A stretch of 64,000 bases of DNA from a virus. This document shows, piece by piece, positions 7,537 to 59,565 of the stretch (its first letter is position 1; every line of letters starts with the position of its first letter). The notes beneath the pieces were generated by a model, which saw nothing but the letters and a program-made list of their open reading frames with translations, made no database searches and was not told the DNA's origin. Position numbers and translations under genes: made by a program. The stretch covers positions 32,001 to 96,000 of the IMG/VR virus record IMGVR_UViG_3300012920_000023. One strand, written 5' to 3'.

Positions 7537-7812
7537 ATGATGATTAAAAGCAGAAAAATGGTGGTATTTACGGTATCCTTAGTGATGTTTCTTGGGAACT
7601 ATCTACTTGGTTCTCCGCTTCCGGAGGATCAAGTACAGCAGTTTTTAGTGTTGATCGTAGGTTGGTTAGTTGCACAAGGTGTTGCTGATGCAGGCACGCA
7701 GGGGCAGGTGAATTCTGCCCTCCGGGCCTCTAAGCAAGGACAGCAGATTATAGAAACAGTTAAAAGCCTTAAGAACGAGCAAGAATCTATCGATGCGTCC
7801 AAAGACAAGTGA
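7537..7812 (+). CDS. Holin-like small membrane protein
   Basis: KSRK followed by two hydrophobic segments and a charged tail. Confidence 0.55.
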   Translation: MMIKSRKMVVFTVSLVMFLGNYLLGSPLPEDQVQQFLVLIVGWLVAQGVADAGTQGQVNSALRASKQGQQIIETVKSLKNEQESIDASKDK

Positions 7813-7844
7813 CGCACACATGTGCACACCGACAGGAGTCAACC

Positions 7845-8741
7845 ATGAATCTAGTAGAGCAGTTGGAATTTTTATTAACTGACGTGGGAGGGATTACCTC
7901 CCTTTTAGAAGATCACGTTAGACCACCATATTCATCACCGGCAGGAAAGATGAGGATGGCAAAATCAATCGTGAGTATTATCCCGGATCACAAGATTTAT
8001 GTTGAACCTTTCGCCGGTTCTGCGTCTGTGCTTTTCGCCAAGCCACCGGCAGAAAAAGAAGTGCTTAACGATCTAGATACAGACATTGCCGACGCTCTAA
8101 AGACTCTTAGTAGAATGAGCAAGAGTGATCTTGATCGGCTTATGAATAAAGATTGGCATGGTGACGAGCATAAATACAAGCGTCTTTATTCAATGAGATC
8201 ATCAGATGCAATCGAGCGTCTTTACCGCTTCTTATACCTCGCTAAAATGGCCTTTGGCAGTGTTCGTGGCCCCGGTAATTTCTGCAAGCGAGAAGCAACG
8301 AGGGATCATAGCCCTTACTTTAAGAGAAGATTGCCCCCGGCGGTGGAGCGAATGAGGGGTGTTAAGGTTTATAATAAGGATTATGAGTCTGTCTGCCGTC
8401 AGTATGATAGCCCACAAACATTCTTTTTCCTTGATCCTCCTTATGCCGGATATAGTGCCCTCGATGCGAGTGCTAAAAGCGGTCAAAAGACAGGCGAGAA
8501 AGACTTTGATGAGACTAAGTTTTTCAACATGCTTAGAAGCCTTAAAGGTAAATGGTTTTTAAACTATGGTGAGCGTGGAGAGTTGCCCGGTATGTTAAAG
8601 CAGGCCGGATACACCACAAGGATTGTCCATAAGAATCGTGACTTCCGACACATCTTGAAGAAAGGTGGAGACAAGGATGGGCCGAAAACAGTAGGACACT
8701 TGATCGCCTCCAATTACGGTGCGAACCTGTCGGGGTTTTAA
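7845..8741 (+). CDS. dam: DNA adenine methyltransferase (Dam/D12 class) with N-terminal leader
   Basis: Motif I EPFAGSAS, LNDLD, motif IV DPPY; start moved to ATG 7845 behind AGGAG. Confidence 0.92.
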   Translation: MNLVEQLEFLLTDVGGITSLLEDHVRPPYSSPAGKMRMAKSIVSIIPDHKIYVEPFAGSASVLFAKPPAEKEVLNDLDTDIADALKTLSRMSKSDLDRLMNKDWHGDEHKYKRLYSMRSSDAIERLYRFLYLAKMAFGSVRGPGNFCKREATRDHSPYFKRRLPPAVERMRGVKVYNKDYESVCRQYDSPQTFFFLDPPYAGYSALDASAKSGQKTGEKDFDETKFFNMLRSLKGKWFLNYGERGELPGMLKQAGYTTRIVHKNRDFRHILKKGGDKDGPKTVGHLIASNYGANLSGF

Positions 8742-8742
8742 G

Positions 8743-9576
8743 ATGTTATACGCTAAACTAGAATCTCTTTTGCAGAGCACTTTTCTCAACGAAGAGTTTG
8801 CCGTTATCAGACCGCCGTTTGCATCGCCTGCCGGTAAGATGCGAATGGCAGTGAGTTTAGCGTCGAAAATTCCGACTCATAGCACTTATGTAGAGCCATT
8901 CGCCGGTTCATCGGCGGTGTTTTTTGCGAAGCCAAAGGCAAGTGTTGAGGTGTTGAATGACCTCGATAGTGATGTCAGTAATGCTTTGAAGTCTCTCGCT
9001 ACTCTTTCTCCTGCCGAGTTAAAGCAACTTACCTCTATGGATTTTACCGGTTCGCAGGCGAAGTATCATCAAGTGTTTGATAGCAGTCCGACAAGTAAAG
9101 TGGGCAAACTGTATCGGTTCTTATACTTGACGAGGTTCTCTATGAACTCCGGGCGTGGACGCAGTCAGTTTAATCATTTTCAAGCGATCACCACTCCTTA
9201 TTTAGCGAGGCGTGTACCTCCTGCGGTTGAACGCTTAAAGGGCGTAAAGGTACACAATGAAGATTATGAAAGTGTGTGCCGAAAGTATGACTCACCTCAG
9301 ACTTTTTTCTTTCTTGACCCTCCTTATTCCGGCTTTAGTGCCCTCAAGGGCAAGGCTTCTGAAAAAGGGTTTGATGAGGAACGCTTTTTTGACCTTTTAA
9401 GGTCGCTAAAGGGCAAATGGCTACTCAACTATGGAACCAAGGGCAAACTGCCCGGTATGCTTAAACAGGCCGGCTTCAAGGTGAGACATGACACGAGATC
9501 AAGTACGGCCAATATAATGAAGCATGGTAAGGCCAATGGTAATAAACTCACTCACATTATTGCTTCAAATTATTAA
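8743..9576 (+). CDS. dam: Second tandem DNA adenine methyltransferase (Dam/D12 class) with N-terminal leader
   Basis: EPFAGSSA, LNDLD, DPPY; close paralog of the upstream gene; ATG 1 nt after its stop. Confidence 0.92.
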   Translation: MLYAKLESLLQSTFLNEEFAVIRPPFASPAGKMRMAVSLASKIPTHSTYVEPFAGSSAVFFAKPKASVEVLNDLDSDVSNALKSLATLSPAELKQLTSMDFTGSQAKYHQVFDSSPTSKVGKLYRFLYLTRFSMNSGRGRSQFNHFQAITTPYLARRVPPAVERLKGVKVHNEDYESVCRKYDSPQTFFFLDPPYSGFSALKGKASEKGFDEERFFDLLRSLKGKWLLNYGTKGKLPGMLKQAGFKVRHDTRSSTANIMKHGKANGNKLTHIIASNY

Positions 9577-9587
9577 GGAGTTTAGAT

Positions 9588-9881
9588 ATGCCCGGTAAGA
9601 AATCAATGCACCCCTCTTATATGAGACGATGTGTAGCAAGTGTCGCTAAGTCAAACGATTTGAAGTCGGCTTTTGCTATATGCACATCTGCGATGCAAAA
9701 GGCCGGGTACTTAGAACCCGGAACAAGAACACAGACTAAGGACGGCATTAAGCGTGCTCGTCATTATTCGGCTCGTAAAGATTTTAAAGATAAAGAGTTG
9801 GAATATGAGAAAGCCTTGAGTCAAACTGAAGAAGAACTATTTAGTCAGTATTTTTATGAGCACATCATAAAGGAGAATTAA
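9588..9881 (+). CDS. Small basic hypothetical protein
   Basis: AAGGAG RBS; RRCV...AFAIC motif. Confidence 0.65.
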   Translation: MPGKKSMHPSYMRRCVASVAKSNDLKSAFAICTSAMQKAGYLEPGTRTQTKDGIKRARHYSARKDFKDKELEYEKALSQTEEELFSQYFYEHIIKEN

Positions 9882-9882
9882 G

Positions 9883-10329
9883 ATGAGCCTGTCACAGAAA
9901 ATTGAAAACTTAATCCAAGAGCGTGTTGCGGTACTTCCTATACCTATGGTGGGGATGAATCCTAACTCAGTCTCCATGCCGGTTATTGATCCGAAATCAT
10001 TTAGTGGACAGGCCGGTCTGTCTCCATCTGTTAATAAGGGCTGTTGTGATGATTGCGACCGGGCAGAAACTGTTGAAAATAAGCAACCGACTCTGCGTTA
10101 TCAGTTCGTCGGAAAAATGCCTACAGGTGCAGACAAGGACTTAGCACACGGATATCACCACACCGCCTTTATGAGTAAGTTGCAGAAGATGGTTGCCCCA
10201 CTGCCCATTGTCAATAAACCTAGCGGTATTGAAGTGGTTGCCTCGCCGGCTCTCAAGCGTGGCTTGATGGCTTTAGCCAAGCGGTCGGGCATGAAGTGTA
10301 ATGTTATGAAAGAGGGGCATTGTAACTAA
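9883..10329 (+). CDS. Hypothetical protein with shared N-terminal leader
   Basis: AAGGAG RBS; starts MSLSQKIENLIQE. Confidence 0.65.
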   Translation: MSLSQKIENLIQERVAVLPIPMVGMNPNSVSMPVIDPKSFSGQAGLSPSVNKGCCDDCDRAETVENKQPTLRYQFVGKMPTGADKDLAHGYHHTAFMSKLQKMVAPLPIVNKPSGIEVVASPALKRGLMALAKRSGMKCNVMKEGHCN

Positions 10330-10820
10330 TGAACCTGTCGGAGATCACCACATCGGCTAACATAGCGAAAGTTCCTATGCCGTTCATTATGATTAACAAG
10401 ATGCCGTGGCCCTATGCAGGCAAGGTTCTTCTCCCGACGTACAGAGGTGTGTCTTACGTTCGCTTAAACAAGGCTAACCGGGTACAGGTTTCTGAAAGCA
10501 CGTCTAAGGCTCTCAAGACTAGCCTAGAGAAGAAACACGGAGTGAAACTATCTTACTCCGTATCCGGTGATCTTATGGATCTGTATTCCATAGTTGTTCC
10601 TAAAGACAAGCGTGGGCAGGGCTTAGGTTCTAGGGTTATGAAAGAGATTATCTCTTGGGCCGATCAGAATGACGTTATCATTTCGCTTACTCCGAGTGGC
10701 GATCTTGGCTCGTCAGTCTCACGGCTCAAGAAGTTTTATTCCGGGCTAGGCTTCAAGTTGAACAAAGGCAGGAATAAAGATTTTCGCACACAGAACACGA
10801 TGATTAGATATCCCACTTAA
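10329..10820 (+). CDS. GNAT-family acetyltransferase
   Basis: Acetyl-CoA motif IVVPKDKRGQGLGSRVM and LKKFYSGLGF. Confidence 0.88.
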   Translation: MNLSEITTSANIAKVPMPFIMINKMPWPYAGKVLLPTYRGVSYVRLNKANRVQVSESTSKALKTSLEKKHGVKLSYSVSGDLMDLYSIVVPKDKRGQGLGSRVMKEIISWADQNDVIISLTPSGDLGSSVSRLKKFYSGLGFKLNKGRNKDFRTQNTMIRYPT

Positions 10821-10838
10821 ACTAAAAAGGAATGGATT

Positions 10839-11231
10839 ATGTTTTTACATGAACATTTAGAAGATCTCTTAAATGAAAGAGACTACAAATTAAAGGGCAC
10901 AGAGCGTACGCTAATGAAAGCCTTAACAAACGCCGGACTAAAGGTTAGCGTAACCACTAGACAGAGAGGCAGGGACTCTGAGGAATCGCTCGTTGCAGAC
11001 AAGCCTATTGAGAATCCCTCGATTCTGTATAATGCACTCAAGAAATCCGGGGTCAAAAATCCCATTGTCATGTACAGTACCGTTGGATTCACAGGTAAGC
11101 AGGCCAACCAAGATTATCAGTTCCGTTTCGCAGGGAACACGTTTGAGGTCTACCGTGGGAAAACAATCTACTTTATTGGCCGTGGTGACAAATTGTCCGG
11201 CAAATTAAGCCTTTACGATCCTAACGCATAA
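10839..11231 (+). CDS. Hypothetical protein with shared N-terminal leader
   Basis: Starts MFLHEHLEDLLNE; AAGGA RBS. Confidence 0.65.
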   Translation: MFLHEHLEDLLNERDYKLKGTERTLMKALTNAGLKVSVTTRQRGRDSEESLVADKPIENPSILYNALKKSGVKNPIVMYSTVGFTGKQANQDYQFRFAGNTFEVYRGKTIYFIGRGDKLSGKLSLYDPNA

Positions 11232-11240
11232 AAGGCTCTC

Positions 11241-11260
11241 AACGAGCCTTCGCTCGTTTT
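11241..11260 (+). terminator. Putative intrinsic terminator between convergent genes
   Basis: AACGAGC-CTTC-GCTCGTT hairpin followed by T residues. Confidence 0.5.
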
Positions 11261-11261
11261 G

Positions 11262-12200
11262 TTACCAAATCTGATCCCACCAACAGGCACAATCCCATTT
11301 CTTAGGGCTAATATGATGGTGGCCTATCACGCCGGTGAACTCATTCAAGAGAAAGTTCTTATCAACAACACCATGATAGATATCGCCGGTGTCGGACTCA
11401 CCCTTTGGCCCTCTAGGGCAAACTTTCGGGATGTTCAAAGCCACGCAGAGTGTGTTTATGGCGTGCCGGGTTGCTTTTGCGACGCCCGGGTCAATGCTTA
11501 AGATCTCTCTTGGCCCTCTGTCTGTGGGGTTATCTATCCGACTGACGTCGTATGGTGCTTTAGAGTATCGGCTCTCCCACTTCAAACCGGGTTGTTGGCA
11601 AATATCAATACCCACAGAACTGCCGTTAGCCCATCCTGCATGCCATGACTTGTGATTGAGATCAAGGTATTGATAAATGGTAGGCTCTCCGGTATCAGAT
11701 AGACCGATACCTGCATGGCTTGAAACCTTACGGTTTGGGTCACTGAACACACGATAACAGTGATGAGGATTAAGACCACCCCAATGTACGACGATTAATC
11801 GTATCGGCTTGCCCTTTCGACTTGAAAAGTGTCCGAATCGATGTAGGTCTAGCCCACCGGGTTGGTCAAAATTAACGAACTCAACCTCCGGGTTTGAGAA
11901 GCATGAATGTCTGCGGTCATCTATAGTCCAAAACGAGTCTGAGTCTTCGACCGGTTCATACTGCTTTAAGATTGCAGTCCAAGTACCCCGTCCGAGTTTA
12001 CCATCTGCGGTTAAGCCTAGGTCTTTTTGCACCTTTTTAACCCCTTTAACAAAGTCTTTTGACTCATGAAAGTTGGCTAATCCGGGATAGTCGAGGGTCA
12101 AGTTAGGGACATTAATCAAGTCTCGCCCCCAAATAGATCTAGAGGCTTTCTCGTTGAACCTTTGGGCAGACTTTATACTATGTTGTGTTAAGGTTGACAT
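11262..12200 (-). CDS. Endolysin: peptidoglycan-binding domain plus N-acetylmuramoyl-L-alanine amidase (Amidase_2)
   Basis: VKKVQKDLGLTADGKLGRGTW (PG-binding); IVVHW, SSH, WHAG..N..SVGID, GHHHI..KWDC (Zn amidase). Confidence 0.88.
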   Translation of the reverse strand: MSTLTQHSIKSAQRFNEKASRSIWGRDLINVPNLTLDYPGLANFHESKDFVKGVKKVQKDLGLTADGKLGRGTWTAILKQYEPVEDSDSFWTIDDRRHSCFSNPEVEFVNFDQPGGLDLHRFGHFSSRKGKPIRLIVVHWGGLNPHHCYRVFSDPNRKVSSHAGIGLSDTGEPTIYQYLDLNHKSWHAGWANGSSVGIDICQQPGLKWESRYSKAPYDVSRIDNPTDRGPREILSIDPGVAKATRHAINTLCVALNIPKVCPRGPKGESDTGDIYHGVVDKNFLLNEFTGVIGHHHISPKKWDCACWWDQIW

Positions 12201-14946: not shown

Positions 14947-17900
14947 TTAGAGGATCACAAAGTTAAACGTGATATTCGATCCGTCGGCTATCGGTGACCC
15001 GGATTGGTTCGTATAGGTAAACTGAAACGAGCCGTCGGCGACGGTGTGAGGGTGAACATCAACGTGAGCCGAAGCCGTACCCATGATCACGGAGGTGGCT
15101 TTACATAGCGTATTTGAAACGGTGATCGACGTACCCTTTCTAGCACCGTTGCCTAGAGCACCATTAGTAGTCACGGTCACGCTTACACTATGTGTGTTAG
15201 AAGTGAAGTTCCCACTGCTCGTACTCTCATTGGTGCTAGTAGTAGGCTTGCCGAGAATACGCACACCATTACAGTCTAGCGTTGCAAGTGCGGTGTCGGC
15301 AATCGTCGCAGTTGTATCACTATCACTAATGTTAGTTGCATGTCTGTCAAACAACTTGTAAGTGCCGGTATCAGAGCCGTTTGGTTGATATAGGAAGCCG
15401 GCAAACACATCGCTCGATGACGAGTCCTCATACTTGCAGTAAAACCCAATGTTGTTTGTCTGCGGTGAAGTTGCGTTGAGTCCGAGTTGGATCATGGGGT
15501 CTTTGAACTTTACTACAGTCCCTGTTCCCTTAATGGTGCCGGCAACAGTAAGGTCAGCACCTACATCAAGGTCTGTACCGACATCGAGGTCATTACCAAC
15601 CTCAAGGTCTTGAACGATAGAGACATCATCATCAAGTTTAATCGACACGACATTGCTTGAGTTAGTAATATCGATATTGTTATCGGTATTATTAAGCGTA
15701 AGAATCGCAGGACTCGCACCTTGAGTGAAGTTATATTGCCCGGCAGTTCCGGTGGTATCAGTCTTGAGAGTGAACAGTGTGTCGTTCTGCAAGAGGATAT
15801 TCTGTGCACCATTACCGTCGCCACGATCTGCCTGCCAAAGACTACCTGTCTCGTTATAAGCAAGAGTGGCATTAGCACTGTCTCCACGCTCTATAGAGAT
15901 GCCGACAGTATGACTAGGTGTGCCGGTTTGATCACTATTAAGTGTGATAGCAGTAAGCCCCTCGCCGGTAACATTCAATGAAGTCACAGTCGTTACGCCT
16001 GCACCCAAAGTGCCGGTTGTGGACAGATTCTCATCGCCGAATGAAATGGCTCCGGTTGTGTCAGTGATAGACCCGGTGGTGAAAGCCAACGTGCTGTCTA
16101 CAGTCAGATTCCCGAGGATCTTGACATTTCCGACGTCTGCAAACTCCCAATTTGTCTCACTCTCATCCCAAAAGAACTTAGCGTCTGTCGCAGACCCACG
16201 GTTCACGGTCAGACCGAAATCGTCAGTGCTCGCCGGAGCCACACCGCCGGCTAGGTCTGAGTTAAACGTAATCGCTCCTGCGTTCGCAGTTGTGAAGTTA
16301 AGGTTTGAAGTCAGAGTCGTGGCTTGATGGAGTGTAATAGTCTCAGCAAGAGAGTTTATGGTGAGGTAATCTTCGTTTGCGTCCCCTTGTTGAATATGGA
16401 ACGCAGATGCCCGGCCATCGCCTACATTGACGGTAATATCGTTAGTCTTGGGGGAGATCGTAGTAAGTGCAATGTCTGCAACATCTCCAATGTTACCGGC
16501 GTTGTCCATAGAGACACTGCCTGTTACGGTCAGAGATTCAAGGGTTGTCGCTCCTGCGGTTAGAGTACCGGTTGTGGTGATGTTGTCATTGTCAAAACTG
16601 ATCTCTCCTGTGTCGGAGGTGATCTGTAAGTTTGAAGCCCCAAACGTGATGCTTCCACTTGTGCATGAGATTGATCCGTCGGAAATCGTGATGGCATCGG
16701 TTGAACCGCTATCCACAATCAAATCGTTATTAATTTGAACTTTACCGGCGTTATTGAACAACCATGAAAGTTCACCCTCATCCCAATGGAAAATGGCGTT
16801 AGTGCCCGATCCACGGTTGACTGTGATCCCAAAGTCGTCGTTTACATTAGGAGCACTGCCACCGGCGAGGTCAGAGTTGAATACAATCGCCCCTTGTGAA
16901 GCCGTTGGGAAGTTTAAGATACCCTCGGTGGTAATGTTACCGTTTGAAGATGCAATCGTTACTTTCTGTGAGCCAAGAGTAGCACCAATGTGGAGATCGG
17001 CCTGCGAAACTAGTTTAGTGTCAAACGCAAAAGAAGCGTTACTTTGATCCCATTTGAACTTAGCGTTCGTCAGTTCTCCACGCTCCACCTCAATCAAGGT
17101 TGCATCGGCATCTTGACCGCTTCCTGTACGGTCAGAGTTGGCCACAATCAAAGACGCAGTAGCGTCATATTTGAGATTAACGATTCCACCGTGAGTCGTT
17201 GCCTTGGAAAAGGCCACCGGCTCATTGTGTAACACATCCTTTTTAAACTGAATCTCTTCCGAAGAGTCCGTGGTGACGAAAACGAGGTACTCATTAGTGC
17301 TTTCAGTGATTGACAGAGCAGATGGTTGGTTGTCTGCTAGTGAAATCACCATCCCATCACCGGTTTGGTCAGTGATAGAGTCTAGAGCGATGCTTCCTAC
17401 ACCCGAGACATTACCCACTTGAGTAAGACCGCCACTGCTAAAGTCGGCACTTGATACGGTTAGCATACCACCCGTAGTGATCTTTGCGGTTGTAGTGCCG
17501 GCACTCGTTGTGTCTCCGATAGTAAGAGCATTTCCACTTACTCCGGCTTTACCTTGAATGTGCAGACTACCCTGTGGATTGAGGTTAAACTCGCCGGGAT
17601 CTTCATCCCATGAAATGATCGCATTTGTGTCTGTACCACGCTCCACAGTTAGCAGAGTTGCGTCGGCATTATCACCGGCGTTCGTATCATTTGAGTTGAA
17701 CACGATACCGCCACAAGTATCATCTAGGTTAAGAGTGTCGCCTAAAGTTGTAACGCCGGTTACGGCAAGTGTGCTCGTGACTGCGAGAGTACCTGCGATG
17801 GCAGTGTTGCCACTTGAAGCGGTGACATTGAACTTGTTCGCTCCAACAATAAAGTTTCCGGTAGACTTAAGTGCATTAGACAACGCCCAATGGCCATTAG

Positions 17901-20790
17901 TCTCGTCCCACTTGATGCTTGCGTTAGTCTCATCGCCACGCTCTACCTCAATGATTGCGTCTCGCTCTTGGCTTGTGCCTACATCACTGTTGAGCACAAG
18001 CATTGCACTCTGAGAGGCATTACTTAAGTCGCTCGCTTGAATGTTAAGACGGCCTGCCTGCGTAGTCGCACCTGTGGAAGAAACGACAGTGTACTTAGTT
18101 GATCCAACAGCACCTACAGTGAGATTCCCGGTTGAGTTAAGTGCATGACTGAAATCAAACACACCGGGATTAGTGTCCCACTTAATGGTTTTATAAGCCG
18201 GGCCTGCACCGCCGTCATTGACACGGATAAGTGTTGCGTCTCCGGCACTTCCATTTGAAGCGATATCAGAACGGAAGGTGATACCGTCGGATATGCCGTC
18301 CTTGATGTTCAACGCATCTGCAAACGTTGTTGCTCCTGCAATCGAGACAACGCCTGCTGTGCTGACGGTAAACTTGTCGGTGTTGACAGCAAATGTGCCG
18401 TTAGTTGCGATGTTACCGCTAGTGTGTGCGACTGTGAAAGCACCACTGCTCACATTGATTCCACCGTTAGGACTGAGTAGTCCGGAGAAAGACCCGACTC
18501 CAAAACTGCTTGTGGATGTAGATGATGCTGTGAAACCGCCCGATGAACCTGTGCAGGTCATAGAGTCGGCCTTTAACTCATTCCCTCCGAAACTCGTCTC
18601 ACCACTTGCCGAGGTAATCTGTCCGCTTGCGAATGTTAGGTTGGCGATCTTTGACGATGCCGGTAATTCGGTAATCTCATGGAACTGAATCTTGTGTGCA
18701 CTCGTCGTTGTCACAAAAGTGGCGAACCCGTCGGTGTCTGCGGAGGTTCCAATCGTTAAGGCAGAGGGCTTGTTGGCATCTAGGAGAATGTTGAGGTTTG
18801 ACCCATCATCACTCTTCAAAATGTCTGCGGAGAGTGAGCCTACATTAACAATGTTGAAATCACCAACGTCTAGGTTTGCTCCGAGGGTAGTAACTCCCGT
18901 TACTGCTAGTGTACCGGCGATGGCCGTATTACCACTCGCCTGTGCGACTGTAAACTTATTCGTACCGACTGCTGTACCGACTGAGAAGTCTGTGTTTGAG
19001 TGAAGTTTCCCACCGTTTACTGCAAACGTGCTATTGACATCATCCCAAAAAATATAGCCCTCATCGGCATTGCCCGATCCGGCTTCTACAGTGATCAATT
19101 TCACATCGAAGTCAGAACTTTTATTTTGTGCACCACGATCTGAGTTAAAGACGATTCCGAAATCATCGTCCGGTTGGCTTTGAATGAACAGGGTGTCTTT
19201 TACGGTCAACTCTGCGTTTACAAACCCGTTCCTTGTGATGATCAAGTCTTGGCCTACAGTTACATCGGTTGAAACTGAGAGGTTGTGGCTAAACGCCCAA
19301 GTTGTCTCATCATGTTGCCAAGTAATCGTTGAATAAGTATCGCCCATGTCAACGGCAATCACTGCGTTCTGACCCTGCCCTGTGCCTGTATCGGCATTAA
19401 GGATGATCAACTTATCGGATTCAGTAGACTTCTTATTTATACTTAGTGTGGAGTCTGCTCCAAGCGTAGCACCGCCCGTTAGAGTTGACAGTCCGGCTAC
19501 TGAGAGAGTACCGGTTCCTGTCGCACTAATGTTGCCGGAGGTGGTAAGGTTCTCGCTTCCAAAACTAATTTGAGCACCACCGCAGACAATACTTCCATCT
19601 GAGATTGTGATGTCGCCAATGCTTGATCCGGACTTAAAACTAGATACGTCGTTTGTAGCGGTAATCCCACCGTCTGTGTTTACCACGAAGTCATCATTTA
19701 CGTTGATTCCCCCGTCTAGTGAAGCCAAGCCCGTTACGTTGACTTCTCCGGATGCGGTCAAATCTTTAAGAGACAGGTCTGCGTCCGTTGTGTTACCGGT
19801 GGTGAAGTCGGATGCTGTGTGTGCTTCTGTGGTTAGCCCGAATCTAAATGCACTTGCGGAGTCGTCAAAGTACAAGATAGCGTCGTTCCCACTGTTACCA
19901 CGCTCCATCAGAATACCGATATCGTTTGAGTTAGCACCTCCTGCCACCGAGTGGTTCAAGCGAATAACCGGATCTTTAACCTCTAGGGTTGTTGTGTTAA
20001 CCGTTGTGGCAGTTCCGCTAATCAACAGGTCGCCGGTTATTACAACCTTACTGCCTGTACCACCAAGAGTAATGGTGTGTGGGTTATTGCTTCCGTCTTT
20101 AGTAACGGTCGCTCCGATAGAGACATTTCCGTTAGTGAAGTCTAAGCCTGTAAGCCCGGTAAATGCAGTTTCTGTGGCTCCGAGGGCTACAGAAGTCGCC
20201 CCGATAGTCACTGTACTGTTAGTCAGTTTGGCATTTGAGATTGCACTATTATTAATAATGTCGATTTTAGCCGATGTGATAGCACCGCTTTGAAGCGTCG
20301 CCACACCCTCGTTATTGATGTTTAAGTCGCCGGAGATGGGCTTATTTCTAAACTGATTTGCCCCGGTACTCCCGTCGGAGTCAGTATTAAAGATAAGAAA
20401 ATCTGCGTCTGAGAGTGCGTCCTCAGTGCCACCGTCTACTCCTAGGGTGACGTTTGACAGTGAGCCGATCTCAATCGATGAAGCACCACCGGAGTCAACG
20501 TATCCTTTAGTCGCCACGTCGGAGGATTCGGCAGGTTCTTCAACACCTCTTAGCCTAACGGTCGCATTACCTGCACTATCTAGGAACGAAACAACTTGAC
20601 CTGCGGAAAGGACGTTAGAACCGAGGTTGTCCAAGTCGGCTCTGAGTGTCTCACGGCCACCGTTGGTTGTGCCGTCATGGACACGGATAGAACTGTTCGT
20701 AGTGTCTACCGTGATTTCACCGATAGCCCCTGCAAAGGCATCATTTTGCGTGTGTGTACCACGCCTTAGTTTTACTCGTCTTACTGACAT
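14947..20790 (-). CDS. Long tail fibre (1947 aa) with Mtd-like N-terminal domain and about 10 internal repeats
   Basis: N-terminus VKLRRGT...GEITVDTT...RVHDG.T.GG; G/S/T/N-rich; repeated FNSD...VERG...WDE units. Confidence 0.85.
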   Translation of the reverse strand: MSVRRVKLRRGTHTQNDAFAGAIGEITVDTTNSSIRVHDGTTNGGRETLRADLDNLGSNVLSAGQVVSFLDSAGNATVRLRGVEEPAESSDVATKGYVDSGGASSIEIGSLSNVTLGVDGGTEDALSDADFLIFNTDSDGSTGANQFRNKPISGDLNINNEGVATLQSGAITSAKIDIINNSAISNAKLTNSTVTIGATSVALGATETAFTGLTGLDFTNGNVSIGATVTKDGSNNPHTITLGGTGSKVVITGDLLISGTATTVNTTTLEVKDPVIRLNHSVAGGANSNDIGILMERGNSGNDAILYFDDSASAFRFGLTTEAHTASDFTTGNTTDADLSLKDLTASGEVNVTGLASLDGGINVNDDFVVNTDGGITATNDVSSFKSGSSIGDITISDGSIVCGGAQISFGSENLTTSGNISATGTGTLSVAGLSTLTGGATLGADSTLSINKKSTESDKLIILNADTGTGQGQNAVIAVDMGDTYSTITWQHDETTWAFSHNLSVSTDVTVGQDLIITRNGFVNAELTVKDTLFIQSQPDDDFGIVFNSDRGAQNKSSDFDVKLITVEAGSGNADEGYIFWDDVNSTFAVNGGKLHSNTDFSVGTAVGTNKFTVAQASGNTAIAGTLAVTGVTTLGANLDVGDFNIVNVGSLSADILKSDDGSNLNILLDANKPSALTIGTSADTDGFATFVTTTSAHKIQFHEITELPASSKIANLTFASGQITSASGETSFGGNELKADSMTCTGSSGGFTASSTSTSSFGVGSFSGLLSPNGGINVSSGAFTVAHTSGNIATNGTFAVNTDKFTVSTAGVVSIAGATTFADALNIKDGISDGITFRSDIASNGSAGDATLIRVNDGGAGPAYKTIKWDTNPGVFDFSHALNSTGNLTVGAVGSTKYTVVSSTGATTQAGRLNIQASDLSNASQSAMLVLNSDVGTSQERDAIIEVERGDETNASIKWDETNGHWALSNALKSTGNFIVGANKFNVTASSGNTAIAGTLAVTSTLAVTGVTTLGDTLNLDDTCGGIVFNSNDTNAGDNADATLLTVERGTDTNAIISWDEDPGEFNLNPQGSLHIQGKAGVSGNALTIGDTTSAGTTTAKITTGGMLTVSSADFSSGGLTQVGNVSGVGSIALDSITDQTGDGMVISLADNQPSALSITESTNEYLVFVTTDSSEEIQFKKDVLHNEPVAFSKATTHGGIVNLKYDATASLIVANSDRTGSGQDADATLIEVERGELTNAKFKWDQSNASFAFDTKLVSQADLHIGATLGSQKVTIASSNGNITTEGILNFPTASQGAIVFNSDLAGGSAPNVNDDFGITVNRGSGTNAIFHWDEGELSWLFNNAGKVQINNDLIVDSGSTDAITISDGSISCTSGSITFGASNLQITSDTGEISFDNDNITTTGTLTAGATTLESLTVTGSVSMDNAGNIGDVADIALTTISPKTNDITVNVGDGRASAFHIQQGDANEDYLTINSLAETITLHQATTLTSNLNFTTANAGAITFNSDLAGGVAPASTDDFGLTVNRGSATDAKFFWDESETNWEFADVGNVKILGNLTVDSTLAFTTGSITDTTGAISFGDENLSTTGTLGAGVTTVTSLNVTGEGLTAITLNSDQTGTPSHTVGISIERGDSANATLAYNETGSLWQADRGDGNGAQNILLQNDTLFTLKTDTTGTAGQYNFTQGASPAILTLNNTDNNIDITNSSNVVSIKLDDDVSIVQDLEVGNDLDVGTDLDVGADLTVAGTIKGTGTVVKFKDPMIQLGLNATSPQTNNIGFYCKYEDSSSSDVFAGFLYQPNGSDTGTYKLFDRHATNISDSDTTATIADTALATLDCNGVRILGKPTTSTNESTSSGNFTSNTHSVSVTVTTNGALGNGARKGTSITVSNTLCKATSVIMGTASAHVDVHPHTVADGSFQFTYTNQSGSPIADGSNITFNFVIL

Positions 20791-24501: not shown

Positions 24502-24563
24502 TCAGTGCACACGTGTGCACACGTTTAGGGAGTTGGGCAACCACCCATCTCTCCGGAGGCTCT

Positions 24564-26651
24564 ATGATATTTTCCGGCGAAAATGAGGGGCGAAAGGTAC
24601 GTTCTTTTGTCCTGCCTAGTTCATTTATTGATCAATATAAAGAAAGGCAACCCAAGTGGGGGCCATTAGGTTACATAACTTATAAGCGAACTTATGCTCG
24701 GCCTAAGCCGGATGGAAGTTCAGAAGAGTTCTATGAGACTGCTCAAAGAGTAGTTGAGGGTGTGTACAATGTCCAAAAGATACACTGTAGAAGACTCGGA
24801 CTTCCTTGGGATGATCGTAAGGCTCAAAAATCTGCTCAAGAAATGTACCGCCGTATGTGGGAGTTTAAGTTCCTCCCACCGGGGCGTGGTCTATGGATGA
24901 TGGGCACAGAGCAGGTTTACAAGAACGGCAGTGCAAGCCTTAATAACTGTGCGTTTGTATCAACGAAAGACATAGCCACTGATTTTGCATCTCCGTTCAC
25001 CTTTTTGATGGATATGTCTATGCTAGGAGTTGGCGTCGGGGGTGACTGTAAAGGTGCAGGATTAGTACGGATTGTTGAGCCATCCATTGATGAAGAAACT
25101 TATAAAGTAGAGGATAGCCGGGAGGGGTGGGTTGGACTTCTGAGGGTTATTTTAAACGCCTATGTAGGAAAGGGCAGTCTCCCGGCAGAGGTTGATTACA
25201 GTGATGTCCGGCCTTACGGTACACCTATTAAGGGCTTTGGTGGTGTAGCAAGTGGCCCTAAGCCTTTGATTGAACTTACTGATAAAGTTAAAGAAGTCCT
25301 TAATACTCCCGGTGAGTTAATCACGACCTCGCAGATCGTAGACATATTCAACCTTATCGGTGTGTGTGTTGTAGCAGGCAATGTTCGGCGTACTGCCGAG
25401 ATTATGTTCGGTGAGCCGGACGACGAGGTTTTCGCAAAACTAAAAGACCCATCTGAACTCAATGAACTTTATCGCCGGCAACAAGAACTTGAGAGCGATT
25501 ATACGTTTCCCGATGAAAGTGTAGAGTCTAAGATCGAAGAGGTTAAGAGACAAATCTCAAATCACCCTCTGCGAACTCACCGGTGGGCTTCAAATAACTC
25601 AATATTTGCCGAGATAGGAATGGACTACAGCACGATAGCCGAGTCAATAAAGGCGAACGGAGAACCGGGCTTGGTTTGGTTAGACACAATGAGAGATTGG
25701 GGCCGGCTCATTGATCATAAACCTAACGGTAAAGATTATCGTGCGATGGGTTCAAACCCATGTGCAGAGCAGACTCTTGAGTCCTTTGAGTTGTGCTGTT
25801 TAGTAGAGACATTCCCGGCTCATCATGATGATCTAGATGATTATTTAGACACATTAAAATACGCATATCTGTATGCAAAAACCGTGACCCTCATTCCGAC
25901 TCATGACCCCCGGACAAACACTGTTATGAACAGGAATCGTCGTATAGGTTGCAGTCAATCGGGGATTGTACAAGCGATGAACAAGTTAGGCAGAAGAACT
26001 TATCTTAATTGGTGCAACATCGGTTACAATCGCATTAAGACTCTTGATAGGAAATACTCAGAGTGGCTAGGCATCCCGAAGTCGATTAAGACAACCTCAG
26101 TAAAGCCGTCCGGCACTGTCTCACTTCTGTGTGGTGCGACTCCGGGCATCCACTTCCCTCACAGTGAATACTATATACGTCGCATTCGTATCGCCGAGGG
26201 ATCACCTTTAGTCGAAATGTGTGCTAATGCCGGTTACCCCGTTGAAACCGATGTTTATGATCAGACCGGCAAGACTATGGTTGTGTCTTTTCCTGTCAAA
26301 GAGGAGCATTACACTAAAGGGAAGAGTGAAGCCACTATATGGGAGCAGGTTGTCAATGCCGTTGACTTACAGCACTATTGGGCCGATAATCAAGTTAGTG
26401 TGACTGTTACTTTTAGCAAAGATGAGGGAAATCAGATTGTGCCGGTGTTAGAGTCATTTGAGAACCGACTTAAGAGCATATCATTCCTACCAATATCGGA
26501 ACACGGATATGCTCAAGCACCTTATGAGACAATCAGTGAGTCGGATTACAACACGCTTATAGAGAATATAAAGCCCATGTTGTTGACTATTGATGGCCAT
26601 GATGTAGAAGATAAATTCTGCGACGGTGACAGTTGCGAAATAAACTTTTAA
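24564..26651 (+). CDS. nrdJ: Class II (adenosylcobalamin-dependent) ribonucleoside-triphosphate reductase, monomeric type
   Basis: PPGRGLW, LNNCAF, AGNVRRTA, catalytic NPCAEQ, VKPSGTVS, C-terminal CDGDSC; start at ATG 24564 behind GGAGG. Confidence 0.95.
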   Translation: MIFSGENEGRKVRSFVLPSSFIDQYKERQPKWGPLGYITYKRTYARPKPDGSSEEFYETAQRVVEGVYNVQKIHCRRLGLPWDDRKAQKSAQEMYRRMWEFKFLPPGRGLWMMGTEQVYKNGSASLNNCAFVSTKDIATDFASPFTFLMDMSMLGVGVGGDCKGAGLVRIVEPSIDEETYKVEDSREGWVGLLRVILNAYVGKGSLPAEVDYSDVRPYGTPIKGFGGVASGPKPLIELTDKVKEVLNTPGELITTSQIVDIFNLIGVCVVAGNVRRTAEIMFGEPDDEVFAKLKDPSELNELYRRQQELESDYTFPDESVESKIEEVKRQISNHPLRTHRWASNNSIFAEIGMDYSTIAESIKANGEPGLVWLDTMRDWGRLIDHKPNGKDYRAMGSNPCAEQTLESFELCCLVETFPAHHDDLDDYLDTLKYAYLYAKTVTLIPTHDPRTNTVMNRNRRIGCSQSGIVQAMNKLGRRTYLNWCNIGYNRIKTLDRKYSEWLGIPKSIKTTSVKPSGTVSLLCGATPGIHFPHSEYYIRRIRIAEGSPLVEMCANAGYPVETDVYDQTGKTMVVSFPVKEEHYTKGKSEATIWEQVVNAVDLQHYWADNQVSVTVTFSKDEGNQIVPVLESFENRLKSISFLPISEHGYAQAPYETISESDYNTLIENIKPMLLTIDGHDVEDKFCDGDSCEINF

Positions 26652-50658: not shown

Positions 50659-51009
50659 ATGAGACTAGACGAAGCCATTCAGATCATTGAAAATCATAAC
50701 CATGACTCTTCTCTTGCAGAGTCAACCCCTGCCCGTATAACCACTCATGACCTCGCCATGCTACTAAAGGATGCCGGCAACAAAGTCACTATGGAGCCTT
50801 GGAAAGACGGGACTGTAGGTATCTCAATTCGGCATGGTCAAAGGAAGTTCTTGCAGGGTGTAAAAGCGATTAAAGACCTTAAGAACAACATAACCGGCTT
50901 CACAAATAAGCGTGCTAAAGGTTCATTCTCTTACAAGGGCAATGAGTATCTTTTTCAGCCATACAAGGGCTATATTTTCATTATGCCTCTTACTGAAAGA
51001 AAGTATTGA
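50659..51009 (+). CDS. Hypothetical protein with shared N-terminal leader
   Basis: Start moved to ATG 50659 (MRLDEAIQIIE). Confidence 0.6.
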   Translation: MRLDEAIQIIENHNHDSSLAESTPARITTHDLAMLLKDAGNKVTMEPWKDGTVGISIRHGQRKFLQGVKAIKDLKNNITGFTNKRAKGSFSYKGNEYLFQPYKGYIFIMPLTERKY

Positions 51010-58352: not shown

Positions 58353-59060
58353 ATGTATCTAAATGAAGCGATAACGATATTAGATGGGTTAATGTATGAG
58401 TCAGACCTAGATCGGTTAAAGGCTTTACGCCGGATAAAGCGTGTCAGCAAAGCACCAACTGATAGGCTTATTGCTCTCTTGAAGAAAAAGGCGGAGAGAG
58501 ATAGTGCACGCAAACCCAAGTTTATTGGTCAAATCGGCTATTTGAAGTTAGCGTGGTCTTTTGATGGGAAGAAAGACACTTATATTCACTACACCACAAG
58601 AGAAAACGCTAAAAAGATACTCAAAACCAATATGCTTGACAGCAAGAACAGCGATAACCCTATGTTTCGTGAGTCGAATTTTGCCATATCTATGACTTTT
58701 GGGGGCAACCATCCGGGTGTTCAACGTGGCACTGTCTGCGGTCTTAGGAATGCAAGAGAGTGCGACATTGTGGCTATCGTGTTCAAAAGCGATGTGCAAC
58801 CGAAAGTTGGTTATCAAGATGAAGTTATATTCCGTGGCCGGACTAGGATAAAAAGCCCGGTGATGTATGACATAACAAGCCCAAAGTTTAAGTCAATCAT
58901 ATCTAAACTAAATGGCATGCCGGGAGTTACTCAAGACCATGTGGACTCAATGGTGTTCTATACGGCGAAAGACATTGAGTCTGCTAAAAAGGAAGCGGAG
59001 AACTTTGTCCAAGATCCGGATGATGCTGATATGGATTGGCAGGGCTTCGATAATCAATGA
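58353..59060 (+). CDS. Putative ADP-ribosyltransferase-fold protein with shared N-terminal leader
   Basis: YIHYTTRENAKKILKTNML resembles the ART strand-1 pattern HYT....A..I...G.L; later QDEVIF. Confidence 0.45.
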   Translation: MYLNEAITILDGLMYESDLDRLKALRRIKRVSKAPTDRLIALLKKKAERDSARKPKFIGQIGYLKLAWSFDGKKDTYIHYTTRENAKKILKTNMLDSKNSDNPMFRESNFAISMTFGGNHPGVQRGTVCGLRNARECDIVAIVFKSDVQPKVGYQDEVIFRGRTRIKSPVMYDITSPKFKSIISKLNGMPGVTQDHVDSMVFYTAKDIESAKKEAENFVQDPDDADMDWQGFDNQ

Positions 59061-59175: not shown

Positions 59176-59565
59176 ATGTTGTTACAAGAAGCGATTTTAA
59201 TTGTGCAGAGTCTGAGTGAAGCACGTCGATTCAGAAAAGGCGATCCGATTAATAACGAACTAAAGGACGCCCTTAAGTCTCTGCGTAAGCACTCAGAGGT
59301 AATATATGACCTAAACCGGGCACGACAGAGTGGCCGTTTAGACAACTATAAACTCAGTGCCAAAGAGAAGTTAAGGCTAATGTCTATTGCGGATGCAGTT
59401 GAGACTATGGGTAAAAATGGTATTAGTTCCGCTAGAATGATAAGGTCTACTGCATTAAAGGGAATGAAGAGTGGCAAGATCTCAAGTGCTTCCGTATTAC
59501 TCATCTCTAATCTCTTGAACCGCCTAGATATGGGAGATTTCGGAGACGAGTTCTCTAGCCTATAA
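59176..59565 (+). CDS. Basic hypothetical protein with shared N-terminal leader
   Basis: Starts MLLQEAILIVQSLSE; GGAG RBS. Confidence 0.65.
   Translation: MLLQEAILIVQSLSEARRFRKGDPINNELKDALKSLRKHSEVIYDLNRARQSGRLDNYKLSAKEKLRLMSIADAVETMGKNGISSARMIRSTALKGMKSGKISSASVLLISNLLNRLDMGDFGDEFSSL

Follow-up and report, generated by a model that had tools for sequence, protein, structure and literature searches.

A shared N-terminal leader on two Dam methyltransferases and two neighbouring proteins of a distant T4-type phage: a candidate capsid-targeting tag

The window analysed here is a stretch of 64,000 nucleotides, bases 32,001 to 96,000 of the 113,463-bp uncultured virus record IMGVR_UViG_3300012920_000023 (IMG/VR; 63% estimated completeness). 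Coordinates are window positions, except where they carry the label G000 or G000:C1, which denotes the whole virus record including its parts outside the window. Six consecutive genes of this stretch encode two D12-class Dam methyltransferases (Dam1 and Dam2), a GNAT acetyltransferase, and proteins of 97, 148, and 130 amino acids (aa); an earlier note on this DNA had the genes and their coordinates right (Table 1). Dam1, Dam2, the 148-aa protein, and the 130-aa protein, which represent three unrelated families, share a short N-terminal leader, and the resemblance goes beyond chance. The best explanation of this leader, to which we assign a probability of roughly 0.55, is that it targets the proteins to the capsid and is removed by a protease; the four leader-bearing proteins probably enter the capsid and travel to the host together with the DNA.

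The four leaders have the form M-x-L-x-E-x-[LI]-E-x-L-[LI], an amphipathic helix, followed by [LI]-x-E. Across the genome, 4 of the 145 open reading frames (ORFs) have the pattern [LIVM]E.[LIVM][LIVM] among their first 25 residues; all four are in the cluster, where the pattern stands at residue 6-7 from the true ATG. A scan with a leader hidden Markov model (HMM), suggested in the earlier note, gave a positive result: when 2275 candidate starts were ranked by a profile built from the Dam leaders alone, the first non-Dam N-terminus was that of the 130-aa protein (E 0.024), and the 148-aa protein was a marginal match (E 0.69). Pair scores among the N-termini of the four genes reach the 99.9th percentile of all pairs. 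The bodies of these proteins are unrelated apart from those of Dam1 and Dam2, which are 54% identical only from residues 25 and 22 on, respectively, so that their leaders fall outside the BLAST match. The same note had counted a leader on five of the six genes; the count is four, as neither the GNAT nor the 97-aa protein carries one, and the MNLSE start that had been read as a GNAT leader is MTLST in the ortholog from the relative L008.

The leaders and the motif that closes them are conserved in each family. Dam1-type leaders read M..L.EQLE.LL.D[IV]GPLEAL.E, with L-x-E at residue 22-23 in 10 of 11 sequences and V-C-E in the eleventh, and 7 of 8 Dam2-type sequences have [LI]-x-E at residues 17-22. 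In the family of the 148-aa protein, a helix ending in L-x-E at residues 12-16 is present in all nine members, including those only 34-49% identical, and L-x-E is followed by a small residue and the motif [IV]A..P.P[FLM]. The 130-aa protein has a sole ortholog, to which it is 63% identical overall and 13/13 identical over the leader. Between the window and the relative L007, the Dam1 leader has accumulated many synonymous changes, and a four-codon indel lies directly after L-x-E-D. Because the changes are synonymous and the indel falls just after the site, this codon comparison shows the signature of protein-level selection on the Dam1 leader. Together with the Shine-Dalgarno-like sequences that precede every ATG of the cluster, it also supports the start codons upstream of the leaders that the earlier note had used.

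Both Dams are clear members of the D12 class, scoring 68.6 and 58 bits against PF02086 (cut-off 22) and sharing FFFLDPPY as well as an EPFAGS-type motif. The Pfam domain begins at residue 34 in Dam1 and 31 in Dam2, which leaves an N-terminal extension of about 30 residues on each. In the AlphaFold model of Dam1, the leader forms a helix at residues 2-13 with a predicted local distance difference test score (pLDDT) of 56-68, as compared with >93 for the core. The model of the 148-aa protein has a leader helix at residues 3-13, about 55 disordered residues rich in Cys and Pro, and a ferredoxin-like domain at residues 70-143. Searches of Pfam, PHROGs, ESM Atlas, and Foldseek for a function of the 148-aa and 130-aa proteins returned only this generic ferredoxin-like fold. 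The GNAT protein matches phrog_10691 (E 5.5e-19) and gives Pfam scores that, set against the curated cut-offs, pass for Acetyltransf_1 (22.8 vs. 20.7) and fall slightly short for Acetyltransf_CG (29.8 vs. 30) and Acetyltransf_7 (26.8 vs. 27). Its catalytic domain starts at about residue 56, after an extension of about 55 residues that contains IAKVPMPF and ends in V-S-E56; both GNAT orthologs likewise have an extension of about 55 residues with [LV]-x-E just ahead of the catalytic domain. The GNAT and the 148-aa protein also share a second motif, A..P[MIVT]P[FLM], at residues 13 and 16, and these are its only two occurrences in the proteome.

Judged by its gene content, the source virus is a distant T4-type myovirus. 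The window encodes a sheath protein of 820 aa and two gp19-type tube proteins, and the capsid protein of 527 aa aligns to T4 gp23, has the N-terminal motif KW.PLLEG, and shares about 29-33% identity with its counterparts in Flavobacterium phage immuto, Rhodothermus phage RM378, and cyanophages. T4 gp21, the prohead protease, cleaves after Glu (PMC9026906, PMC5694885). As the earlier note had proposed to check, a gp21-type protease is encoded in the genome, and the same motif recurs in the head proteins. The Peptidase_S77 domain is N-terminal in a protein encoded upstream of the window, and in its alignment to T4 gp21 (5jbl) the catalytic His and Ser are both kept, within GELDHP and SSRG. The remaining C-terminal part of about 320 residues is acidic and coiled-coil-like and holds 13 [LI]-x-E sites, so that the whole resembles a fusion of protease and scaffold. 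Another 14 sites are present in the putative core protein; the average over the genome is 1.07 per 100 residues. In the gp23-like capsid protein, [LI]-x-E occurs only at residues 9, 33, 60, and 125, that is, within the first 125 residues, and cleavage of the propeptide is predicted. The site at L-N-E60 lies at the propeptide end suggested by the gp23 alignment, and the same tripeptide closes the leaders of Dam2 and the 130-aa protein.

The distribution of the motif within the cargo candidates points the same way. Among Dam1, Dam2, the 148-aa, GNAT, and 130-aa proteins, and an ADP-ribosyltransferase (ART)-like protein encoded elsewhere in the window, [LI]-x-E is found only in the first 22 residues, and the bodies contain 0 copies vs. 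about 4.7 expected from composition-preserving shuffles. A naive expectation of about 12 is too high because these proteins are Glu-poor, and it overstates the effect. In the bodies of the ortholog Dams, 11 copies were observed vs. 33.5 expected, whereas outgroup Dams are not clearly depleted (35 vs. 44 expected). Such depletion fits proteins that would need to survive beside the protease.

These data suggest the following scheme. The cluster would encode head cargo, consisting of the two Dams, the 148-aa and 130-aa proteins, and probably the GNAT. The amphipathic helix of 13-23 residues would dock the cargo on the scaffolding core during prohead assembly, like the T4 capsid-targeting sequence, and the gp21-type protease would then cut after the leader-terminal [LI]-x-E, giving predicted new N-termini at D23 of Dam1, E18 of Dam2, R14 of the 148-aa protein, and R14 of the 130-aa protein. 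The mature proteins, which are basic, would remain associated with the DNA and accompany it into the next host, there to serve in counter-restriction or host takeover. We infer targeting, cleavage, packaging, injection, and the timing of methyltransferase action from sequence. The position of the cluster genes at the end of the structural-gene block, which has a hairpin at its end and lacks an internal promoter signal, also counts in favour of capsid loading, as do the low-confidence leader helices that AlphaFold places apart from well-modelled cores.

The closest known counterpart is the set of T4 internal proteins (IP), which together with Alt carry a loading tag of 10-19 residues that is removed by gp21, and whose cargo differs among T-even phages (PMC3012670, PMC9026906). 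The T4 propeptides of IPII and IPIII (MKTYQEFIAE) end in I-A-E and that of IPI in I-T-E, which are of the [LI]-x-E form. IPI, IPII, IPIII, and Alt thus resemble the window proteins in having a short N-terminal peptide, ending in [LI]-x-E, on otherwise unrelated, basic, non-essential-looking proteins. Further likenesses are the gp21-type protease and gp23-type capsid of this phage, a cargo set that varies between relatives, and the location of the cluster, which adjoins an endolysin gene as ipIII-ipII adjoin e in T4. On the other hand, the window leaders are 13-23 residues long with an L-E-x-L-L core and have no similarity to the T4 tag sequence, and two of the candidate cargo proteins are DNA methyltransferases, a type of enzyme not known among T4 capsid cargo.

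A DNA methyltransferase carried in the head has a precedent in phage P1. For DarB, a methyltransferase-helicase, ≤30 N-terminal residues suffice as a signal for capsid loading (PMC9024508), and the protein is believed to protect incoming DNA (PMC9024508, PMC5512222), which is the likeness if the cluster encodes capsid cargo. DarB differs in its size (250 kDa), its multidomain make-up, and its dependence on helper Dar proteins, whereas the window enzymes are small, stand-alone D12 Dams from another methyltransferase family and belong to a T4-type head system. The ejection proteins of phiKZ-like giant phages (phiKZ, 201phi2-1, SPN3US) provide another parallel, in that an S77-related protease cuts them after Glu and diverged paralogs still have conserved N-termini (PMC5694885); in contrast to the window leaders, their propeptides are mostly >100 residues long and the motif is S/A/G-x-E.

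The relatives of the cluster enzymes add a second line of evidence. Outside the immediate clade, the nearest Dams (about 40% identity) are fused to an XkdF-like prohead protease domain (PF14550) in 80 of the 93 listed proteins, and the Dam-XkdF fusion is present in 48 of 59 evaluable metagenome loci. Such fusions, or Dams within large head-module proteins, were seen in many uncultured phages and in Myxococcales prophages; a literature search for a description of Dam-XkdF fusions found none. In L043 and L076, for instance, the gene order is portal, MuF, Dam(-Dam)-XkdF, scaffold, and capsid. L002 encodes a 1776-aa protein with two Dam domains and an XkdF domain at its end, and in L081 a Dam stands at the head of a 957-aa protein between portal and protease-scaffold.

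The closest phage relatives of the GNAT lie within polyvalent proteins of 2514-3764 aa that have LPD domains, and the 3764-aa protein, of Serratia phage Parlo, is annotated as DarB-like. Methylase, GNAT, and ART domains all occur in polyvalent proteins (PMC5512222), and the MuF- and XkdF-linked fusions among them (Iyer et al., 2017) contain the same Dam and GNAT domain subfamilies as the window. In L008, an ART-like gene follows the GNAT gene, echoing the described GNAT-ART pairing of polyvalent proteins (PMC5512222). Polyvalent proteins differ from the window in architecture, as each domain is encoded here by its own gene (97-298 aa), four of the products having a leader, rather than forming part of one multi-effector polypeptide. 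The cluster thus holds the domain repertoire of injected polyvalent proteins, unbundled into separately tagged genes. A broader proposition is that stand-alone orphan Dams, a GNAT, and uncharacterised proteins are loaded into a T4-type head by a new leader, while the same Dam subfamily reaches the proheads of hundreds of phages by XkdF fusion; this we advance tentatively, with the odds somewhat against it.

Several observations weigh against capsid loading. After correction for composition, the depletion of [LI]-x-E from the bodies is modest (P ~0.01 for the window proteins), and the orthologs that were counted are related by descent and hence not independent. Taken by itself, the end motif carries little weight, as 40 of the 145 ORFs have [LIV]-x-E between residues 8 and 24. 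Two members of the cluster have no leader helix, namely the GNAT and the 97-aa protein, the latter also being without the second motif shared by the GNAT and the 148-aa protein. Related "EAI" leaders occur on small genes scattered over the genome. An N-terminal helix precedes the core in distant Dam-XkdF relatives too, which means that the Dam helix may be ancestral to the enzyme subfamily. The leader and the T4 tag are dissimilar in sequence beyond the terminal [LI]-x-E, and the similarity of the leader to scaffold segments is at chance level: the core protein or the protease tail supplied the best proteome-wide match for 3 of 5 leaders, but shuffled leaders equal these scores in 23-51% of trials, and we do not use the match as evidence. 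Finally, the packaging of a methyltransferase is left unexplained, since DNA can be methylated before it is packaged.

The strongest alternative, though an unlikely one in our judgement, is that the leader is a cytoplasmic docking or oligomerisation helix, perhaps ancestral in the Dams, that might for example join the cluster products to one another or bind a common partner, with neither loading nor cleavage. The helix ahead of the SPAGK core in distant Dam relatives, the amphipathic character of the leaders, the adjacent and translationally coupled genes, which would suit a complex, and the related leaders on scattered small genes are all consistent with it. It does not explain why [LI]-x-E is strictly conserved at the leader end and is followed by an indel-prone or disordered stretch, nor why the motif is absent from the bodies and the same Dam and GNAT subfamilies have a head-module context elsewhere.

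The leader might also bring the proteins into the virion by another route, either staying uncleaved or directing them to the tail lumen or baseplate, which we consider improbable. The cluster does come after the sheath and tube genes, and for P1 DarB no removal of the packaging signal is known (PMC9024508). Nevertheless, every leader closes with a conserved protease-type motif, the related Dam fusions are in head modules and not in tail modules, and Pfam and PHROGs scans of the cluster found no tail-assembly signature. Less probable again is a resemblance due to composition or chance. N-termini that are Leu/Glu-rich and AT-rich are common, two of the four leaders are paralogous, the motif was defined after the data had been seen, the 148-aa protein reaches only E 0.69, and [LIV]-x-E is frequent near N-termini; against this, all four motif-bearing N-termini fall within six consecutive genes at an equal distance from Met, the HMM match to the 130-aa protein is independent, and leaders are kept down to 34% identity, one of them being the best-conserved part of its protein.

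A further reading, that the leader tethers the enzymes to a sliding clamp or the replisome, has very little chance of being correct. The one point in its favour is the flavour of the motif in Dam1 (Q-L-E-F-L-L), where L-E-F-L-L is reminiscent of two clamp-binding elements, the hydrophobic-acidic tails of T4 proteins and the box in eukaryotic DNMT1. We rejected this reading because the Gln is not conserved; moreover, the leader has a predicted helical structure, is N-terminal, and is also present on proteins that have no DNA-enzyme signature. A search for a clamp gene found no match in the 113-kb fragment, but is uninformative because the search controls were equally silent.

The cluster is tightly packed on the plus strand, with several ATGs overlapping the preceding stop, and the block faces a convergent amidase endolysin gene (11262-12200, minus strand) and an N6/N4 methyltransferase gene. 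The earlier note had placed the cluster directly after the tube genes; it does follow the sheath and the two tube genes, but a 91-aa membrane protein gene intervenes. In the 32-nt gap between this gene and Dam1, at 7811-7830, there is an inverted repeat with GTGCAC (GACGCACACATGTGCACACC). A sigma70 scan stayed at background, the structural-gene block shows no internal promoter signal, and the T4 late promoter TATAAATA is not enriched.

A second leader family, M-x-L-x-E-A-I-x-I-[LI]-E, was observed on six otherwise unrelated small proteins, where it ends in [LIV]-x-E at residue 11-16. For the one of these genes at 58353, the ortholog in L008 lies within the cluster, immediately after the GNAT gene, and its leader is intermediate between the two leader types.

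Table 1. Positions of the cluster, its leaders, and the related features described in the text. Entries with the prefix G000:C1 refer to the whole virus record, and those with the prefix L to related loci.
Feature	Position	Strand	Remarks
91-aa membrane protein	7537..7812	+	between tube genes and Dam1; kept in relative L007; weak holin-like match
Dam1, D12-class N6-adenine DNA methyltransferase	7845..8741	+	298 aa; DPPY
Dam1 leader	7845..7910	+	residues 1-22, MNLVEQLEFLL..., ends L-L-E22; predicted cut before D23
Dam2, Dam1 paralogue, D12 methyltransferase	8743..9576	+	277 aa
Dam2 leader	8743..8793	+	residues 1-17, ends L-N-E17
97-aa basic protein	9588..9881	+	no leader, no family match; conserved in L008
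148-aa protein	9883..10329	+	leader, disordered stretch, ferredoxin-like domain
148-aa protein leader	9883..9921	+	residues 1-13, ends I-Q-E13
GNAT acetyltransferase	10329..10820	+	163 aa
130-aa basic protein	10839..11231	+	
130-aa protein leader	10839..10877	+	residues 1-13, ends L-N-E13
Terminator-like hairpin	11232..11250	+	closes the plus-strand block
Second-family leader gene	50659..51009		in window
235-aa protein, second-family leader gene	58353..59060	+	related leader (MYLNEAITILDGLMYE); weak ADP-ribosyltransferase match (E 0.013)
Second-family leader gene	59176..59565		in window
Second-family leader gene	G000:C1:5826-6218	-	outside window
Second-family leader gene	G000:C1:7400-7756		outside window
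Second-family leader gene	G000:C1:8008-8319		outside window
Putative core protein	G000:C1:22282-23292		336 aa, acidic; upstream of window
Peptidase_S77 (gp21-type) protease	G000:C1:23494-24987		497 aa; E 1.4e-16; upstream of window
Dam-XkdF or large head-module locus	L043:9902-11254		
Dam-XkdF or large head-module locus	L076:9698-12316		
Dam-XkdF or large head-module locus	L002:6192-11522		
Dam-XkdF or large head-module locus	L081:8518-11391		

The heavy restriction pressure that the earlier note had described is evident from several short palindromes that are wholly absent from the genome. No copies were observed of AGCT (293 expected), CGCG (143), GCGC (140), GCNGC (285), CCWGG (157), GGWCC (157), or CTGCAG (27), and CATATG, CCATGG, AGGCCT, and GGATCC are absent as well. 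GATC is not avoided (527 copies), and CCGG is over-represented (810). The S-adenosylmethionine (SAM)-binding motif of the window Dams reads AGSASV and AGSSAV, vs. EPFAGSAAV in their relatives; the window forms avoid Ala-Ala and therefore GCNGC, which fits the genome-wide avoidance of this site.

Elsewhere in the window, a 1947-aa fibre-like protein (14947-20790, minus strand) has an N-terminal Major tropism determinant domain (Mtd_N, E 3.9e-08), and a gene for a class II (B12-dependent) ribonucleotide reductase (24513-26651) is located between fibre and baseplate genes. A nucleotide search of the genome gave no match to known phages, and IMG/VR scans with Dam1, the 130-aa and 148-aa proteins, and the tube proteins found no close relative.

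Capsid-targeted cargo is itself already known; new here are the sequence of the tag and the type of cargo, stand-alone D12 Dams. If the broader proposition put forward above holds, to carry an adenine methyltransferase in the capsid, so that it acts while DNA is packaged or immediately upon injection, would be a widespread and undescribed counter-restriction strategy, and one that was reached by two different means, fusion and leader tag. If the capsid-loading explanation is correct, it would raise the question of why so many phages put a Dam methyltransferase in the prohead. T4 leader tags and polyvalent fusions would be linked through their shared cargo domains, and a leader followed by [LI]-x-E would provide a simple sequence rule for predicting injected proteins in uncultured phages. 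The leaders could be used to tag foreign proteins for loading into such capsids, as has been done in T4 and P1. Capsid-targeting tags would then not be a peculiarity of the T-even phages: T4-type heads in general would have an address system that can evolve, used here for DNA-modifying enzymes.

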